Assembly: GCA_005239895.1 (NCBI GenBank)
Contig: SBBB01000027.1
Span: forward strand, 376-64,375
Reading direction: 5' to 3'
DNA: 64,000 nt
Origin: a bacterium
GTDB taxonomy: Bacteria; Patescibacteriota; Patescibacteriia; SBBB01
Position numbers and translations under genes: made by a program. Below, one piece after another: positions 2,594-63,262 of the stretch. The first letter of the stretch is position 1, and the number at the start of each line of letters is the position of its first letter. The notes below the pieces were generated by a model. That model was given only the letters and a program-made list of their open reading frames with translations, was not told the origin of the DNA and did not search any database.

Positions 2594-3973
2594 ATGTTAC
2601 AAAATGCAAAACAGGTTTTAGTAGTTTTATTTATTATAAGTGTGTTAGTTATTGGAATTGCTGGAAGAGAAACATTTGCATCTTCTCATCATCTTAAAGC
2701 ATCCGAAAAAATAGTTCAAAACATGATGGAGAAGTATTCTAAAATTAATTCTTTAGAGTACTCAGGAGAATTAAAAGCGCAAACTAAGGGTCATGATGCG
2801 AGCAATTTTGTGCTTAATTTTAATGGGATGTCGGATGACAAAGATGTAAAAAATATTAAAGGGGTGTTGTCCTTGAATATTGCCGCTGATCAGGCATCTA
2901 GGGGTGAATCTGCTGATGAACCTACTAAGAAGAAATTTAATTTAGGATTAGATATAAGGTTTGTTAACAAAATAGTTTACGTAAGGCTGAATAATATCGA
3001 TATTCCCTCTTTTGGTAAATCTAAAGACAAAGAAATTTCCGAGATTACTAGTCTAAAAAATCAGTGGATTAAAATTGATATTGAAGCTTTAGCAAAATCT
3101 CCAGAACTAAAAGAATTAGGTTTAGATATAAAATTTAAAGAAGCGGAAAAACAAACCGAACTATCACCAGAACGGGTTAAAAAATTAGAGGAGGTTTTTA
3201 AACAGGCAAGAATTTTTAAAGTCGTAAAAAGATTTTCTGATAAAACCATTAATAATATACCAACTTACCATTTTAAATTTGAATTTGATAAAAATGGCAT
3301 AATAGAACTAATAGCTGGTATTTCAGAGGTTATGTTCGATAAAGAATCTGGAGAGGCAAAAATGGAGAGAGGAGAAATGCTTAAAGTGTATAGTAGGAAT
3401 TTTCAAGATATAAAACTTCCTAAGGGAGAGATTTGGATAGGTAAAAAGGATTTATTACCGCATAAAATTTATTTTGGTGTTAGGCCCAAGGTTGCTGTAA
3501 AAAGCGAGTTATCTACTAGGTATGATTTTACTCTTTTATTTAAAAATTTTAATAAACCAGTTCAGGTTGATGTTCCAGCTAATACTAAATCACTAGAAGA
3601 TATTATTGGTCCTAAACTTGCTGACGCCAGGCAAAAATCGCGCGATGCTAAACGCGTAGCTGATATGAAACAATTACAAACAGCTTTAGAGCTTTATTTT
3701 ACTGAAAAAAATGATTATCCACCTACGGCTGTTATAGATGATGGTGATCCAAAAAATACTCCTTTAAAATTATCTACTGGTAATGGTTTTTCTACTGTTG
3801 CTTCAGGTACAACAAATATGGAGTTTGTTCCAGAAAATCCGCAACCCAATGGCATACCGTATGTTTATAACAGACTAAGTCCAACAGATTTCACTATAGA
3901 TTTTAGTCTTGAAAAAGGTTTCGGAAATTTGTCAGCCGGACATCATGTTACCACTTCGGGTGGTATTAGGTAA
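2594..3973 (+). CDS. hypothetical membrane-anchored protein with C-terminal type IV pilin-like globular segment
   Basis: N-terminal TM helix. C-terminal ...ARQKSRDAKRVADMKQLQTALELYFTEKNDYP... matches the conserved post-helix region of type IV pilins/pseudopilins. Confidence 0.5.
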   Translation: MLQNAKQVLVVLFIISVLVIGIAGRETFASSHHLKASEKIVQNMMEKYSKINSLEYSGELKAQTKGHDASNFVLNFNGMSDDKDVKNIKGVLSLNIAADQASRGESADEPTKKKFNLGLDIRFVNKIVYVRLNNIDIPSFGKSKDKEISEITSLKNQWIKIDIEALAKSPELKELGLDIKFKEAEKQTELSPERVKKLEEVFKQARIFKVVKRFSDKTINNIPTYHFKFEFDKNGIIELIAGISEVMFDKESGEAKMERGEMLKVYSRNFQDIKLPKGEIWIGKKDLLPHKIYFGVRPKVAVKSELSTRYDFTLLFKNFNKPVQVDVPANTKSLEDIIGPKLADARQKSRDAKRVADMKQLQTALELYFTEKNDYPPTAVIDDGDPKNTPLKLSTGNGFSTVASGTTNMEFVPENPQPNGIPYVYNRLSPTDFTIDFSLEKGFGNLSAGHHVTTSGGIR

Positions 3974-4005: not shown

Positions 4006-4156
4006 TTGTCATCCCCGACCTGATCGGGGATCCAGATTATGATTAAGCGTGCACGTTCCTGGATTCCCGTTTTCACGGGAATGACAGAAAAAAACTTGTC
4101 ATTCTCAAGTCCGTTCGGACATGAATGTCCTCAGGATCACGACCAGAGGATGACAA
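4006..4156. repeat. MITE-like GC-rich palindromic element (copy 1)
   Basis: Terminal inverted repeats TTGTCATCC ... GGATGACAA. Internal hairpins ATCCCCGA-N6-CGGGGAT and ATTCCCGT-TTTC-ACGGGAAT (ATTCCC-N8-GGGAAT type). Shares GCGTGCAC and GGATTCCCG modules with the copies at 38757 and 55538. Confidence 0.65.
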
Positions 4157-4174: not shown

Positions 4175-4199
4175 CACTTAGTAGCGAAACTACTAAGTG
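4175..4199. terminator. hairpin CACTTAGTAG-CGAAA-CTACTAAGTG between convergent genes
   Basis: 10-bp perfect stem between the 3' ends of the 2594..3973 (+) and 4316..4618 (-) genes. Candidate bidirectional terminator. Confidence 0.35.
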
Positions 4200-4315
4200 A
4201 ATGTAATGTTTAATCCCCACGGCATTGAATCGTGGGGATTGTGTTTAATTATAATATTTTGATTGATAGTGTTAATCAATACTGTTGTTTGTTAGGAGTA
4301 GATTTTCTGTATAAT

Positions 4316-15827: not shown

Positions 15828-15850
15828 ACTTAGTCGCCTTGCCACTAAGT
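15828..15850. repeat. REP-like hairpin ACTTAGTCGCCTTGCCACTAAGT
   Basis: Identical to the unit at 2458..2496. Sits 3' of the HD gene (- strand). Confidence 0.65.
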
Positions 15851-22930: not shown

Positions 22931-24946
22931 ATGAATCTTACTAAACAATCTTTTAATGATTTGACAAGTAGTCAGTTTCAAGATAGAGAGGTTTTTACAG
23001 CCCTGCAAGATGTTGTTTTAGATTGTGAGCGCTGGGCTCATTTAGGAGATATTTACGAGTTTTATATTATTTTAAAGCCTAAAATGAATGCTACTAAGGT
23101 TGATGGTCATTCTTTAGATATTTATTTGGAATATGAAGAATTGCTGATTAGAATGGGTTTTATTACTTTGCCGTTTCAGCCTCTTAGTGAGGTTGTAGAT
23201 TTATTTACCAAACATTTATTAGTAGCTTTAAAATTCAAAATAAACCTATTTGATAAATTTATTTTAAGATTTTTACTAAAAGATATAAAGGCTGTGCGCA
23301 CAGAACTTCAGGTTATTATTAAAGCCTTGGAAAGCAATTTGGAAATTATGGAGCCTGAAAACCCCACAATTCAACCCTACCCCATTAATTCCTGGATAAA
23401 CGACTATAAAAATTATTTAGAGAATAATAAGGGTACAACCAATACAATTGCTCAGTTTATAGATACGTTTATTACAGCCACAGTTGACGCTGATTTTAGA
23501 CAAAGAGTAAGAAGCGTTTTAAATATTTATGATTGGTTAGTAAATTACGAAGAACGTAAGCGCGCCAATACTATATCTACAGAGTTATATGTTAAAGACA
23601 ATGGTGTTTCCACTACTCGTGTTATCTCTAAAGCAGCTAACACTATTGATGTTAAAAAGAGTAATGAGGTTAGTATTCCTAAAGTTGATTATGATGCAAT
23701 TATTGATAAGGTTATTACAGAGTGTAATTTTAGTACGCAAGGAGAAATAATAGTAAAACGAGCTCGTAATATATGTTTAAGTTGTTTAAAAAATTTGCGA
23801 GATGTTGTAGATACTAAATTAATACTTATGCAGCCACAAACTAAAGGTGGTTTAGGTGTAACTGAAAAAATGGCCTATAAAATAATTAGTATGCTTACAG
23901 AGCATATTGATTTTGAATCCCAGATCCAAATTAAAAAGCCACTTCAAATGAAAATTTCTGTCACCCAATCATCTGATGCTGTTTTAGATCAATTAGAGTT
24001 AATGCCACCACCCCTAACTGTTATTTCAGTTGAACCAGAAGTGCCTGTTCCTCCGGTTGGTTCTACAACAACTGAAGAGAATGTGCTGGAAGAGAAACCC
24101 ATATTAAATCAGAATGAGTTGGTTGTTTCTTTAGAACCAGAAATACCCAATCCAATTATTACAGAGCCCACAGAACCAGTTGAGACAAGTCAAACTACTT
24201 TAAATTCTGTTGTAAATTCAGAAGTTTCTTTAGTGCCTGAAGAAGCTGTTACTGATTCTAAACAAACCAATTCACTTTTAGATCAACTAGAATTAATGCC
24301 ACCACCCCTAGCTGTTATTTCAGTTGAACCCGAAGTGCCTGTTCCTCCGGTTATTTCCACAATCACCGAAGTCAACCCACTTGAAGAAAAGCCCGTGTTA
24401 AATGAGTCAGTTATTTTTTCAGAACCAGAAATTCCAAAACAGGCTATTGTTCCAGACCCAGTAATTATTGAGACACCAACACCTGAAGCCCATCCCCTTA
24501 ATGCACAACCAATTACAAATGAAGCTGTTATACCGATTAAAGAAGAAGCTGTATCTAAAGAGATCGCGACTTCAGCAGTACTGGAAACATCCAAGGATTC
24601 GTTCAAAACCAGTCATAAATCACGAGTAATGACCCCCATTGATGAGTTGAGTGTTATGGGGTTGGTTGAATTTAGGCGTTTATCTGAAAATGCTTTTCAG
24701 GCTATGGAAAAACTTTCCAATAAATTAAAGCTTTGGGGACAAGAGTCGTTTTTAAAGCGCTTAGATGGAATAACAGCCTGGAGATCATCTCCCATACATC
24801 AGATGTATCTTGCGGTATGCAAAGAAAGTTTAAATCAGAATAAAAACCCATTTGACGTTATTAAAGCCCATAATAATCCTAAAGAGTATATCACCGTTGA
24901 TGAATATAGTGCTATAATATCTTTTAATATTAGTTTGAGAGTTTAA
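22931..24946 (+). CDS. hypothetical Pro/Glu-rich protein with internal ~98-aa tandem duplication
   Basis: DQLELMPPPL[T/A]VISVEPEVPVPPV... occurs twice. DNA repeats start at 23987 and 24281, near-identical over about 80 nt. Confidence 0.45.
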   Translation: MNLTKQSFNDLTSSQFQDREVFTALQDVVLDCERWAHLGDIYEFYIILKPKMNATKVDGHSLDIYLEYEELLIRMGFITLPFQPLSEVVDLFTKHLLVALKFKINLFDKFILRFLLKDIKAVRTELQVIIKALESNLEIMEPENPTIQPYPINSWINDYKNYLENNKGTTNTIAQFIDTFITATVDADFRQRVRSVLNIYDWLVNYEERKRANTISTELYVKDNGVSTTRVISKAANTIDVKKSNEVSIPKVDYDAIIDKVITECNFSTQGEIIVKRARNICLSCLKNLRDVVDTKLILMQPQTKGGLGVTEKMAYKIISMLTEHIDFESQIQIKKPLQMKISVTQSSDAVLDQLELMPPPLTVISVEPEVPVPPVGSTTTEENVLEEKPILNQNELVVSLEPEIPNPIITEPTEPVETSQTTLNSVVNSEVSLVPEEAVTDSKQTNSLLDQLELMPPPLAVISVEPEVPVPPVISTITEVNPLEEKPVLNESVIFSEPEIPKQAIVPDPVIIETPTPEAHPLNAQPITNEAVIPIKEEAVSKEIATSAVLETSKDSFKTSHKSRVMTPIDELSVMGLVEFRRLSENAFQAMEKLSNKLKLWGQESFLKRLDGITAWRSSPIHQMYLAVCKESLNQNKNPFDVIKAHNNPKEYITVDEYSAIISFNISLRV

Positions 24947-30404: not shown

Positions 30405-30770
30405 TGTGATCCTCCTGGTTTTTACTTGCGTTTCCTTGACGCGAATAACTGACTCTTATGAGCAGCGCACTAGACATCTATCTGACTATTGGCAGGATTT
30501 AGCCATCCAATGCGCTGCTCACTACAATATCCAAACAATATTTATAAATTTACAAAGAACCTATATAATTAAGCCAAAATAATTTGGATTAAGTAAATTT
30601 TAACTTAATCACCATAGCACAAAATAAGAAAAAAGTCAAGAAGTGGTGGTGTCAACACACATGACAGTTTTTTGCAAGAATAAGCATAACTTAATTCATC
30701 CGCCAAGATTTAATAAGTAAATTGTAGGAGGGTGAATTTAGGAGGATAAATCCACTACAACTAAATACAA

Positions 30771-30856
30771 GTTTAAGCGGGTAAATTAGACAAAATTAGG
30801 TATATATTTTATAATATACTAGTAATTTTTAGTACAATTTTTAGTTAAAATATAAT
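30771..30856 (+). promoter_or_regulatory. 86-bp promoter-containing segment, copy A (-35 TTAGAC 30786-30791, 18-bp spacer, -10 TATAAT 30810-30815)
   Basis: About 93% identical to 31858..31943. Sigma70-like hexamers visible. Confidence 0.4.
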
Positions 30857-30858
30857 TT

Positions 30859-31119
30859 ATGACTCTACATAATTTAGTTAAAAAAAGATCTTACTTATTT
30901 TGGTCCACCAAAAATTATAAGGGGCTTTCTAAAGAAGCGGTTTTAGAAGGAGTTTTAAATTATGGAACCATGAAAGATGTGCAAGAGGTTTTCTCTATTT
31001 TAGGCATGAACAATGCGGCTAATATTTTTTATAAACAAATAAAAAATAAACGTAACAATTATCGCCCCGAAATAAAGAATTATTTTAAATTATATTTTAA
31101 AAAATATACACCCCGTTAG
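30859..31119 (+). CDS. small conserved partner protein of an AbiEii-like nucleotidyltransferase (putative antitoxin-like)
   Basis: 86 aa. Paralogous to 52808..53032 (shared LFW.T...L.K.A..Y...K...G pattern). Immediately upstream of the NTase. Confidence 0.4.
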   Translation: MTLHNLVKKRSYLFWSTKNYKGLSKEAVLEGVLNYGTMKDVQEVFSILGMNNAANIFYKQIKNKRNNYRPEIKNYFKLYFKKYTPR

Positions 31120-31148
31120 AAGCTGTCGTTACATTTTAGAATATCAAC

Positions 31149-31811
31149 ATGCAAATTATACACAAAAAAATTAAACATATTATACCTTCAGCATCTAATG
31201 GGATGCATCCCGAAGTGTTAACTAAAAAACAAATTGAGCTATTGCCGCTGATTAAATTATTTTCTAGTAATTTTGGTTTAGTTGGAGGTACGGCGATTGC
31301 TTTACAAATAGGTCACAGAGGATCATTAGATTTTGATCTTTTTACTAATAAAAGATTTGATAATTTATCAATAAGGGAAAAGATTTTAAAATATGGAAAA
31401 ATAGAAAAAGTTTTGGTTGATCATAAAGACGAGTATACTGTTTTGATAAAAGGAACAAAAATAACATTTCTTTATTATCCTTTTCAGCTGGCATTTTCTA
31501 AAAATTTTAACAATATTATAAAAATGGCTGATCTTTTAACAATAGCAGCTATGAAAGCTTACGCTCTTGGTCGTCGAGCAAAGTGGAAAGATTATGTGGA
31601 TCTTTATTTTATTTTAAGTATTTATAGTATGGATAAAATTATTCAAAAAGCTGATAAAATATTTGGCTCTGAATTTGATCAAAAATTGTTTAAGGTTCAG
31701 TTGAGTTATTTTAAAGATATTGATTATTCCGAAAAAATAATTTATAGGGACAAATTTCAAACTAGTGATAATACCATTAAAAAAGGATTGTTAGATTTTA
31801 TTTTTAAGTAA
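31149..31811 (+). CDS. AbiEii/DUF1814-family nucleotidyltransferase (type IV TA toxin-like)
   Basis: GLVGGTAIALQIGHRGSLDFDLF N-terminal NTase motif. C-terminal R.KWKDYVDLYFIL motif of the AbiEii family. Confidence 0.6.
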   Translation: MQIIHKKIKHIIPSASNGMHPEVLTKKQIELLPLIKLFSSNFGLVGGTAIALQIGHRGSLDFDLFTNKRFDNLSIREKILKYGKIEKVLVDHKDEYTVLIKGTKITFLYYPFQLAFSKNFNNIIKMADLLTIAAMKAYALGRRAKWKDYVDLYFILSIYSMDKIIQKADKIFGSEFDQKLFKVQLSYFKDIDYSEKIIYRDKFQTSDNTIKKGLLDFIFK

Positions 31812-31857
31812 ACCAATAAAATTAATTAATAAAGTTTTAATACAACGAGGTTAATAA

Positions 31858-31943
31858 GTTTAGGTGGGTAAATTAGACAAAAACAGGTATATATTTTATA
31901 ATATACTAGTAATTTTTAGCACAATTTTTAGTTAAAATATAAT
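31858..31943 (+). promoter_or_regulatory. 86-bp promoter-containing segment, copy B (-35 TTAGAC 31874-31879, -10 TATAAT 31897-31902) upstream of aspS
   Basis: Direct repeat of 30771..30856. Confidence 0.4.
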
Positions 31944-31952
31944 GTATTATAC

Positions 31953-38722: not shown

Positions 38723-38756
38723 TCCGTTGCATGATTTTTTGTCATTGCTGTTTTTT

Positions 38757-38940
38757 TGTCATTCCCGCGAAGGCGGGAATCCAGGAGCGTGCACACTTAT
38801 CATTATTGTTTCGATCGTACGAAATACCAAACTCCAATTGCACTGAGACTCTCAGAGTCGAATACTTGAGGGTCTTCAGACCCGATGGGATTCAAAATTT
38901 TAATAAAAAACCTGGATTCCCGCCTGCGCGGGAATGACAG
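38757..38940. repeat. MITE-like GC-rich palindromic element (copy 2)
   Basis: TGTCATTCCCGCGAAGGCGGGAATCCAGG at the 5' end and CCTGGATTCCCGCCTGCGCGGGAATGACAG at the 3' end (inverted ATTCCC-N8-GGGAAT hairpins). Internal GAGACTCTCAGAGTC palindrome. The 68-aa ORF inside it is spurious. Confidence 0.7.
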
Positions 38941-39042
38941 GGCGGATATTTTAATCAAGCAAGTAAGTTATATAATAATTACTTAGTCTTGATATTTATA
39001 TAATGATTATTGTATGATATTTAATACCAGTTAAGATAATAT

Positions 39043-39117
39043 TCCGGTGTAGCGCAGCGGTAGCGCAGGTGCCTGTTAAGCACTTGGTCGCAGGTTCGAA
39101 TCCTGCCACCGGAGCCA
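39043..39117 (+). tRNA. tRNA-Asn (anticodon GTT), CCA encoded
   Basis: TCCGGTG acceptor, GCGC-AGCGGTA-GCGC D-arm, anticodon loop CTGTTAA, T-arm GCAGG-TTCGAAT-CCTGC, GCCA 3' end. Confidence 0.9.
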
Positions 39118-39120
39118 TCT

Positions 39121-39186
39121 TACGCTAAAGCTACAGAATGGCTGACGCCATCTTACGCTAAAGCTACAGAATGGCTGACGCCATCT
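39121..39186 (+). repeat. two tandem 33-bp units (TACGCTAAAGCTACAGAATGGCTGACGCCATCT), each ending with a copy of the tRNA-Asn 3' end GCCATCT
   Basis: Perfect direct repeat immediately 3' of tRNA-Asn. GCCATCT occurs at 39114, 39147 and 39180. T-run follows. Confidence 0.7.
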
Positions 39187-45014: not shown

Positions 45015-45098
45015 GGGACAATGTTTAGTTACTTAACAGTCTGACCACTAAGTAATAGTAGGTTGAAATCTATTAAGAGAAATGGTAGAATTCAAAAT

Positions 45099-51370: not shown

Positions 51371-51506
51371 GCGACGGTAGCTCAGCGGTAGAGCGCTTGT
51401 TCAGTATAGAGGAGAGTCACCGTCACACTTTTTGGTCGTAATTAATGACCGAAACTCTTTACGTTTTACGACAAGAGGTCGGGGGTTCAAATCCTCCTCG
51501 TCGCTC
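51371..51506 (+). tRNA. tRNA-like gene interrupted by a ~63-65-nt insertion in the anticodon loop (candidate intron; isotype unresolved)
   Basis: Canonical acceptor GCGACGG/TCGTCGC, U8A9, D-arm GCTC-AGCGGTA-GAGC, anticodon stem CTTGT (51396-51400) / ACAAG (51471-51475) separated by 70 nt, variable AGGTC, T-arm GGGGG-TTCAAAT-CCTCC. Confidence 0.5.
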
Positions 51507-52807: not shown

Positions 52808-53032
52808 ATGAAATTAAGACCAGAGTTATTTTGGGATACGAATATTAAAAATATTGATTTAAGAAAACATGCTCAGTATATTATTGAAAAAGTAGCTGAT
52901 TTTGGTCACGATAATGAAGTGCGCTGGGTATTAAATTTATATAGTAAAAAATTATTAAGAAAAGTTATTGCTAAATCTAGGTGTTTACGTCCCGAAACAA
53001 AAGCTCTATGGGTTTTACTATTAAAAAAATAA
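52808..53032 (+). CDS. small conserved partner protein of an AbiEii-like nucleotidyltransferase (paralog of 30859..31119)
   Basis: 74 aa. LFWDTN... pattern shared with the first copy. Confidence 0.4.
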   Translation: MKLRPELFWDTNIKNIDLRKHAQYIIEKVADFGHDNEVRWVLNLYSKKLLRKVIAKSRCLRPETKALWVLLLKK

Positions 53033-53046
53033 ACAATAATCAAGAT

Positions 53047-53712
53047 ATGGTTTTGGGTGATGTACATTGGCATTATGAAACATTACCGCGCAGTACAAAA
53101 AAGGCTTTTATTTTTTTGTCTGAACAAAAGTGGTTAAAAAAGTCAAATTGGTATTTAGCTGGTGGTACGGCTTTAGCTCTTTGGTGTGGCAATCGTAAAT
53201 CTTTGGATTTAGATTTTTTTATTAAAGATAAAGATTTTACTGACAATCAGGTCTTGAAATATTTTATAGGAAATAAAAATTGGAAACTTGAATTAAATAA
53301 AGAGAATACAATATTTGCAAAATTATTTAATGCTAAAATAAGTTTTATTAGTTATCCATTTTTTGAACCTAGACAGGATTTAGTGTGGCATGGGTCGGTT
53401 CGTGTATTGCATCCGATTGATATTGCAGTTATGAAAATTATAGCCATATCTCAGCGCGGTAAAAAGAGAGATTTTTTTGATTTATATTGGTGCGCTCATA
53501 ATATTGAACTTTTGACAAGAACAATTAAAAGACTTAAAGTCCAATATCCATTGGTTGTGCATAATTACCATCATATTTTAAAAAGTTTAGTATATTTTGA
53601 TGATGCAGAAAATGATCCTGAGCCAGAAATTTACTTTAATGCCAGTTGGAGTAAAGTAAAAAAGTTTTTTACTAAAGAGATTTCTATTATTGCGGATCGT
53701 ATTTTGCGTTAA
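53047..53712 (+). CDS. AbiEii/DUF1814-family nucleotidyltransferase (second copy)
   Basis: AGGTALALWCGNRKSLDLDFF and RGKKRDFFDLYW motifs. ATG at 53047 chosen (track ORF opens at GTG 52981, overlapping the small ORF). Confidence 0.6.
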   Translation: MVLGDVHWHYETLPRSTKKAFIFLSEQKWLKKSNWYLAGGTALALWCGNRKSLDLDFFIKDKDFTDNQVLKYFIGNKNWKLELNKENTIFAKLFNAKISFISYPFFEPRQDLVWHGSVRVLHPIDIAVMKIIAISQRGKKRDFFDLYWCAHNIELLTRTIKRLKVQYPLVVHNYHHILKSLVYFDDAENDPEPEIYFNASWSKVKKFFTKEISIIADRILR

Positions 53713-55537: not shown

Positions 55538-55840
55538 TTGTCATTCCCGCGTTCAGCCTTCGTTCAGCCTTCGTAGCCATAGGCTACTATGGCGCGGAGT
55601 AGGCTAGCCGTAGCTACTACGGTCGCTTACGCTCCATAGCTTCAGCGACGGAGCGCGAAGTAGGCCAGGCGGGAATCCAGGAGCGGATTCATTAAAAATA
55701 AACCTGGATCCCCGGGTCAAGCCCCGTTAGAGATTATAAAAACCAATGTTATCTATTTTAGATACAACTATGATTACTAGCTTATTTAATTACAAGTATC
55801 AGGTATAGATCTCTAACGGGGTCAAGCCCGAGGATGACAG
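55538..55840. repeat. MITE-like GC-rich palindromic element (copy 3, about 300 bp, nested)
   Basis: TGTCATTCCCGCG terminus ... GGATGACAG terminus. Internal palindromes GCCATAGGCTACTATGGC and CCGTAGCTACTACGG. GGGAATCCAGGAGCG module. 14-bp inverted repeat GCCCCGTTAGAGAT / ATCTCTAACGGGGTC flanking a 67-bp AT-rich core. Confidence 0.65.
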
Positions 55841-63210: not shown

Positions 63211-63262
63211 GGATTGCAGGCGGGAATCCAGATTTATGCGTGAATTTCGAATTTCGAATTTT
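63211..63262. repeat. partial MITE-like element (GGATTGCAGGCGGGAATCCAG...) plus GAATTTC microrepeats
   Basis: Shares the GCGGGAATCCAG module with 38757 and 55538. Confidence 0.45.

Follow-up and report, generated by a model that had tools for sequence, protein, structure and literature searches.

The dispersed GC-rich palindromes of the 64-kb window (the whole stretch of DNA analysed here, 64,000 nucleotides) are, as judged from their sequence, Ssn-related motifs (SRM/NTS), also known as CGTC-1 type REP hairpins. It is likely, in our opinion, that they are recognition hairpins of the Ssn nuclease which spread as pairs from a unit-ssn-unit module and on which a putative Ssn, encoded elsewhere in the genome, acts in single-stranded DNA. 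Published work already covers the unit and its habit of forming dimers, as well as its wide distribution and partner nuclease; the host lineage is new. Some further details may be previously undescribed: gene-carrying and gene-less pairs have an identical geometry, the pyrimidine-rich leader is conserved, and an upstream half-site precedes some units.

The repeated entity is a 28-nt hairpin unit, accompanied by ~7 nt upstream and ~14–20 nt downstream. In its sequence, TGTCAT-TCCCGCG-loop-CGCGGGA-ATCCAG, the head TGTC(A) is unpaired; an 8-bp stem that starts with AT (ATTCCCGC/GCGGGAAT) encloses a 4-nt loop, and CCAG(G) forms the tail. Of these units the window has four intact and two split by foreign inserts, besides one half unit and a degenerate pair, at a density of about one unit per 8 kb. 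Below, "SRM match" refers to the pattern HGTCWY-N0-2-YYVSBRH-N0-5-WNVSBRG-N0-2-RNCYNB.

4007–4035, plus strand: unit u1, intact; stem variant ATCCCCGA...TCGGGGAT, loop of 5–7 nt: TGTCATCCCCGACCTGATCGGGGATCCAG (SRM match, hairpin in the DNA fold; the variant is also found in L055, L106 and L217)
4036–4058: spacer of pair 1a; includes GCGTGCAC; homology with the pair 2 spacer over the first ~22 nt of the latter
4059–4086, minus strand: unit u2, intact: TGTCATTCCCGTGAAAACGGGAATCCAG (SRM match, three mismatches to the NTS consensus)
4098–4155: degenerate pair, heads outward, both heads intact (TGTCATTCTC / TGTCATCCTC), from direct reading of the sequence
38740–38750, plus strand: half-site TGTCATTGCTG with its own T-run, 17 nt upstream of u3
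38757–38785, plus strand (SRM match 38757–38784): unit u3, intact and canonical: TGTCATTCCCGCGAAGGCGGGAATCCAG(G)
38786–38910: spacer of pair 2; 125 nt, unique, with three small hairpins and no coding remnant
38911–38939, minus strand (SRM match 38912–38939): unit u4, intact: TGTCATTCCCGCGCAGGCGGGAATCCAG(G); 97% complementary to u3
55539–55681, plus strand: unit u5, split; left arm 55539–55551, right arm and tail 55665–55681
55682–55702: spacer of pair 3; 21 nt, both ends homologous to both ends of the pair 2 spacer
55703–55839, minus strand: unit u6, split; stem ATCCTCGGG/CCCGGGGAT, loop CTTGA
63211–63231, plus strand: half unit; loop, right arm and tail (GCAGGCGGGAATCCAG), left arm missing

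This anatomy departs from the initial annotation, which took elements of 150–300 nt as the repeat. The interiors of these elements are unique, and what were taken for termini are unpaired heads, each belonging to one of two separate hairpin units. Its third copy reached 300 nt owing to two unrelated inserts in hairpin loops, and its first copy, drawn as one element up to 4156, takes in a separate degenerate pair at 4098–4155. In this pair the canonical stems and tails are gone, the interior is unique, the SRM pattern finds no match and the DNA fold yields one long hairpin. The half unit begins 3 nt past the stop codon of infB.

The existence of a dispersed, GC-rich palindromic family was borne out, as the sequences described are present at all four places. 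Within the window, TGTCATYCCCG (with at most one mismatch) was found six times, always in the named elements, vs 0.77 matches expected, and 0 of 100 shuffles reached six. At the same tolerance CGGGRATCCAG gave eight matches vs 0.41 expected, seven of them inside elements. The published SRM pattern recognized the four intact units u1–u4 vs 0.04 expected in random sequence. The claim of shared modules held in part: GCGTGCAC occurs in two copies only (4047–4054 and 38788–38795) and is not significant alone, but it lies within a 49-nt stretch that is 88% alike. Likewise, the elements are richer in GC than their surroundings (46–51%), but the window measures 33.7% GC and not the ~31% given as background. 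The four intact units are perfect hairpins of 50–64% GC in a genome of ~34% GC. All elements lie between ORFs or beside a tRNA (flanks 3973/4316, 38722/39043, 55036/55931 and 63208/63268), which agrees with the strictly intergenic location claimed for them.

The resemblance to the Neisseria dRS3 repeat, noted from the start, proved stronger than claimed. The Neisseria Transformation Sequence (NTS), CGTCATTCCCGCGMAVGCGGGAATCYRG, contains dRS3, and a degenerate SRM has been defined together with it (Chenal et al. 2025, PMC11893778). Both u3 and u4 match the 28-nt NTS consensus at 27 of 28 positions, the one mismatch in each being T for C at base 1, whereas u1 is a different stem variant. The window units share with NTS/SRM the same hairpin, the oriented unpaired head and tail, the intergenic location and the clustering in pairs, and in other genomes they flank a gene for a ~90-aa single-domain GIY-YIG protein. 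They differ in the head (TGTC vs CGTC of NTS), in the host, a low-GC, CPR-like lineage unmentioned in the text of PMC11893778, and in that no ssn gene lies within the 64-kb window. The dRS3 form ATTCCC-N8-GGGAAT is present in u2, u3 and u4, and in u5 after removal of its insert; u1 and u6 have ATCCCC/ATCCTC in its place.

CGTC-1 REPs have been described as hairpins with an 8-bp stem, a 4-nt loop, a head that is often TGTC and a CCA tail, and they include dRS3 and Rickettsia RPE-6 (PMC3733652). CGTC repeats were reported from five phyla, mainly from Alphaproteobacteria, and no dedicated enzyme was found for them (Di Nocera et al. 2013, PMC3733652). The AT-starting 8-bp stem, 4-nt loop, CGTC/TGTC head and CCA tail of CGTC-1 are all found in u2, u3 and u4. 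The dimer habit is there as well: the units form inverted pairs with heads outward, three clear and one degenerate, all intergenic. As in CGTC-1, units occur mostly as inverted dimers whose spacers measure 20–100 nt, lie downstream of genes and can mix stem variants within a dimer (heterodimers such as u1/u2). In contrast, u1 and u6 resemble other CGTC families in their longer stems and loops, so that more than one CGTC family coexists in the window.

Another parallel is provided by the intergenic mosaic elements of Neisseria, in which dRS3 pairs surround repeat segments of 50–150 bp. Pair 2 is built in a similar way, with two ATTCCC-N8-GGGAAT units around a 125-nt segment, but the segments enclosed in the window are unique rather than members of a repeat family, and no Nf prophage or IS110-type recombinase is associated with them. 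In the window, no prophage or recombinase adjoins any unit, whereas a role as dRS3-like integration sites would imply one. The initial suggestion of phage-integration sites fares no better, since no phage or integrase is associated with the units there.

In DNA folds the units form hairpins with oriented unpaired flanks, and the hairpin is also supported by covariation in sequence comparisons. Over 27 distinct units drawn from many genomes, pairing holds in 97% of cells, vs 20–54% in slid controls, and five of the eight base pairs show changes of both partners. That GTC and the C following the stem are invariant across the units is a product of the search pattern and was given no weight as evidence. 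The same can be seen within the window. The stems of u1, u2, u3 and u6 are four differing sequences, each still complementary, and the stem of u2 carries a C-G to T-A change that is compensated.

The spacers of the three clear pairs measure 22–23 nt (u1/u2), 125 nt (u3/u4) and 21 nt (u5/u6). In a multiple alignment of the copies, a check that had been proposed at the outset, removal of the loop inserts allows the three elements to be matched over their full length as inverted pairs, with ~45–50 nt conserved in the left arm and ~30 nt in the right. The arms with u2 and u3 have 49 nt in common at 88%; this stretch starts at the T-run ahead of the head and extends 14 nt beyond the tail. This similarity is longer than the protein site, so intragenomic copying took in more than the 28-nt site. 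Its level suggests a fairly recent duplication. No second copy of the spacers or of the loop inserts was found in the window or in the 258 fetched loci.

The other proposed check, for target-site duplications, was negative for every pair: no direct repeats flank them, and the flanks are inverted pyrimidine/purine runs. On the strand of each unit, a run rich in T or in pyrimidines comes before the head, and such a 5′ leader is present in AT-rich and GC-rich genomes alike. Furthermore, a GTCATTCCYG-like half-site with a pyrimidine-rich linker was observed 17–25 nt upstream of 9 out of 255 units, on the same strand and in several phyla. These loci are the window (38740–38750), L033, L038, L056, L061, L068, L085, L099 and L077; in L061 there are three upstream half-sites in tandem. 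The half-site may be a footprint of unit copying.

Two of the units are interrupted in the loop. The u5 insert (55552–55664) has 113 nt and 58% GC, and the unit fits the SRM pattern once it is removed in silico. Short palindromes (TAGCCATAGGCTA, GGCTAGCC, GTAGCTAC) make up this insert together with a GCGCGRAGTAGGCYAG module that is repeated, and it has no other copy in the data examined. The u6 insert (55725–55818) has 94 nt, 27% GC and 13-bp inverted ends (CCCCGTTAGAGAT), and is flanked by an 11-bp direct repeat, GGGTCAAGCCC (55714–55724 and 55819–55829). In silico deletion of this insert and one repeat copy restores an intact unit that fits the SRM pattern. The insert has the look of a very small transposon that inserted into the hairpin; no second copy exists in the window. 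The inverted ends and the 11-bp repeat also indicate that the hairpins can be insertion targets. Together with the half unit and the degenerate pair, these two interrupted units make decay visible.

To the initial annotation, a dRS3-like motif was unexpected in a CPR-like genome. This is not how the distribution looks. When one genome per species was scanned for exact matches to TGTCATTCCCGC-N4-GCGGGAATCCAGG, the motif was found in at least 120 genome stretches; among the matches listed are Nitrospirota, Planctomycetota, Pseudomonadota, Chloroflexota, Actinomycetes, Omnitrophota, an archaeal MAG and others. At least 17 of the loci with the exact motif are titled as Patescibacteria or candidate-phylum lineages, namely Falkow-, Buchanan-, Morani-, Roizman-, Magasaniki-, Nomura-, Berkel- and Peribacteria as well as Paceibacterota. 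The motif was also found in 51 viral contig stretches and on plasmids or replicons of Azospirillum, Neisseria, Legionella, sphingomonads and Cupriavidus. Of the 43 pairs that neighbouring units form in the 120 matches listed, 31 have their heads outward, with spacers of 1–114 nt, which makes this the dominant arrangement across phyla. A 28-mer that stays near-unchanged across a CPR-like genome, Neisseria, Azospirillum, Nitrospirota and Planctomycetota supports strong constraint imposed by a protein, together with horizontal spread.

As for the archaeal MAG, contig DATKXY010000118.1 has one exact match, and "archaeon" is its label as given.

A partner for such units is known from Neisseria. SsnA, a 94-aa single-domain GIY-YIG protein (cd10448), binds the NTS hairpin and cuts just 5′ of the head, in ssDNA only and not in duplex DNA or RNA, and NTS-flanked DNA transforms more poorly (PMC11893778). 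Binding and cutting by Ssn, confined to ssDNA, is known for the enzymes of Neisseria, N. elongata, N. wadsworthii and Wolbachia; SRMs lie near 71% of ssn homologues, and ssn is encoded in 81% of the genomes that carry over 200 SRMs (PMC11893778).

In our set of loci, a GIY-YIG gene was within reach in only 5–6 of the 120 motif-bearing stretches listed. In an Ignavibacteria and an Alphaproteobacteria locus (L077 and L069), a heads-outward pair brackets an ORF of ~90 aa that matches Pfam GIY-YIG with E values of 2e-15 and 5e-17, respectively. Incomplete versions of this arrangement, with the gene beside units, were seen at contig ends in L020, L006 and the Magasanikiibacteria MAG L073. Since the same kind of pair brackets a ~90-aa GIY-YIG gene elsewhere, the pairs of the window look like gene-less, non-autonomous miniatures of the unit-ssn-unit module. 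A sequence search returned no solved structure for the unit-adjoining GIY-YIG protein.

In the 64-kb window itself, no Ssn or GIY-YIG protein was found by tblastn with three GIY-YIG queries, by an HMM built from the unit-adjoining GIY-YIG ORFs (six frames, E up to 10) or by a relaxed search of the intergenic spacers. A Pfam scan of 40 window ORFs revealed no transposase, Y1 transposase, RAYT, IS110, integrase or GIY-YIG domain. In the 51 viral stretches there was no GIY-YIG gene near the units, and no other gene accompanied them.

Related genomes offered few points of comparison. All six window proteins that were checked are singletons at 90% identity. Support for the assignment to CPR is only indirect: at the DNA level one window gene is similar to a Nomurabacteria MAG and the window tRNA to a Paceibacterota MAG, GC is low, and a tRNA has an insert. 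Contigs of the same organism from two Logan read sets, 99.95–100% identical to the window, showed no insertion polymorphism. One of these contigs ends inside element 3, as expected at a repeat. Metagenome loci carrying relatives of RpoD (50–70% identical) contained no true units in 617 kb; their six matches to the SRM pattern are not hairpins.

The closest RpoD relative found (70% identity, covering the protein in part) belongs to L148. In this locus (725–1378), the gene downstream of rpoD is an 87-aa GIY-YIG ORF that lies between the copies of a ~20-nt direct repeat; the repeat corresponds to the 5′ end of a tRNA-like gene, which ~290 nt apparently interrupt. Neither hairpin units nor a tRNA callable by ARAGORN were present in L148.

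Under the reading that we favour, Ssn hairpins would have been propagated as heads-outward pairs derived from the unit-ssn-unit module. When DNA becomes single-stranded in uptake, replication or repair, a unit would fold into a hairpin, and the Ssn nuclease would bind the folded unit and nick the strand a few bases 5′ of the head, leaving double-stranded DNA and RNA untouched; these steps are modelled on experiments in Neisseria. An Ssn encoded outside the window, or formerly present, would have spread the pairs and/or would still use them, and the units would let it act on incoming or exposed single-stranded DNA. Individual copies would be under no strong selection and would decay. We infer both the cognate nuclease in this genome and its responsibility for the spread. 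Against this reading stand the lack of an Ssn or GIY-YIG gene in the 64-kb window and the small share of listed motif-bearing stretches with such a gene within reach. Moreover, GIY-YIG nucleases are not known to transpose DNA, and we know of no mechanism described for the spreading of SRMs, Neisseria included.

The same hairpins could be orphan relics, which arrived horizontally or were spread by an Ssn-type gene since lost, and which decay with neither partner nor function. The missing Ssn in the window would fit this, as would the half unit, the degenerate pair and the two interrupted units, and 19% of SRM-rich genomes lack ssn (PMC11893778). We nevertheless think it unlikely that the copies are relics: AT-biased mutation would erode four perfect hairpins of 50–64% GC in a 34% GC genome unless they had been copied recently or were constrained, and the two arms that are alike over 49 nt at 88% suggest that a duplication was fairly recent. 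Still less probable is a role as structural elements of host RNA or DNA, that is, as 3′-UTR stabilizers, attenuators or terminators of the flanking genes. Every copy does lie downstream of genes or between convergent genes, element 1 is probably transcribed, given its position between the stop codon of the ORF at 2594–3973 and a terminator-like hairpin at 4211–4241, and REPs have such roles in enterobacteria (PMC3733652). However, T-runs precede the heads instead of following the stems, and only one of seven units, u4, has a T-run after the stem, on a strand with no upstream gene. The terminator function suggested initially does not suit the units either, as independent terminator-like hairpins of another family lie nearby and serve these genes. 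The units matched no Rfam family, whether at the gathering threshold over the window or, beyond weak hits, at a relaxed E-value over two elements, and an identical 28-mer across phyla is hard to square with a local RNA function. As a candidate intrinsic terminator, only u4 scored, and it was rejected on the grounds of its strand and of the other hairpins that fill the role.

Classical mobile miniatures were also considered: MITEs of a DDE transposase, REPINs of a RAYT, or attachment sites of an IS110-type or filamentous-phage recombinase (cf. Neisseria dRS3). The outward heads do give an inverted-repeat outline, the long hairpin folds have z = -4.4 to -8.7, and a small insert, with its inverted ends and an 11-bp direct repeat, has gone into u6 itself. 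We regard this explanation as very improbable, because the pairs lack target-site duplications, their interiors are not conserved, the head, TGTC, differs from the GTAG that marks RAYT REPs, the 40 scanned ORFs include no transposase, Y1 transposase, IS110 or integrase, and in the 51 viral stretches neither GIY-YIG nor any other gene accompanies the units. The initial label "MITE-like" is fair in the sense of a miniature non-autonomous derivative, given the pairs that bracket a GIY-YIG gene elsewhere, but not in the strict sense, for the same want of target-site duplications, conserved interiors and a transposase in the window.

The window units also have points in common with REPINs and RAYTs. 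In both systems an inverted hairpin doublet is the unit copied and no target is duplicated; a gene lying between such hairpins represents the autonomous form, and recognition in ssDNA is presumed. They differ in the head (GTAG vs TGTC) and in the enzyme, an HUH tyrosine transposase (IS200/IS605-like) vs a GIY-YIG nuclease for units of the window type; transposition chemistry is known for relatives of RAYT and none is known for Ssn. A bolder proposal is possible in our view, but one that we lean against: unit-ssn-unit would be a mobile module of a new mechanistic type, with the heads-outward pairs as its non-autonomous form, in which the GIY-YIG ssDNA nuclease instead of a transposase drives copying through single-stranded DNA without target duplication, and which moved between phyla and into CPR. 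Were the mobile-module proposal true, the upstream half-site and the pyrimidine leader would be the footprint of the copying reaction, and the nuclease with its sites would gate which incoming single strands survive in CPR. CPR bacteria live by taking up foreign DNA.

Returning to the favoured reading of Ssn recognition hairpins, the pairing of Ssn with NTS/SRM would here be extended, on sequence grounds, to a small, AT-rich, CPR-like genome. Compact natural examples of gene-less pairs can be set beside gene-carrying ones, a comparison on which the question of mobility of Ssn modules depends. In annotation work, the units explain GC-rich islands and assembly breaks, and they call for caution before such sequences are named terminators, small RNAs or ORFs.

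Several other features were observed in the window. A second, unrelated hairpin family, ACTTAGT-N9-ACTAAGT, lies at gene ends (2458–2496, 4176–4198, 15828–15850 and 45031–45053). Its copy at 4200–4174 scores as terminator-like, and these hairpins are probably the real terminators of the genome. The units within 38731–38823 and 38893–38958 gave weak, sub-threshold Rfam matches to BSnc140 (a Brucella sRNA) and FtrB (Francisella), with E values of 0.2–0.45; these sRNA models may contain the same REP hairpin.

A tRNA gene at 51371–51505 (plus strand; Rfam, 49.7 bits) carries ~63 extra nt in the region of the anticodon loop and was not called by ARAGORN; it is probably an intron-bearing tRNA gene. 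At 39114–39179 there is a perfect 33-nt tandem duplication which starts in the 3′ GCCA of tRNA-Asn and ends in a terminator-like hairpin (39171–39184).

Additionally, a 92-nt direct repeat, 93% identical (30769–30860 and 31856–31947), brackets a small cassette at 30859–31811 that includes an AbiEii-type toxin gene; a second AbiEii-type gene is located at 52981–53712. Finally, the 671-aa ORF at 22931–24946 contains an internal repeat of ~170 nt, 83% identical, at 23982–24150 and 24276–24438.
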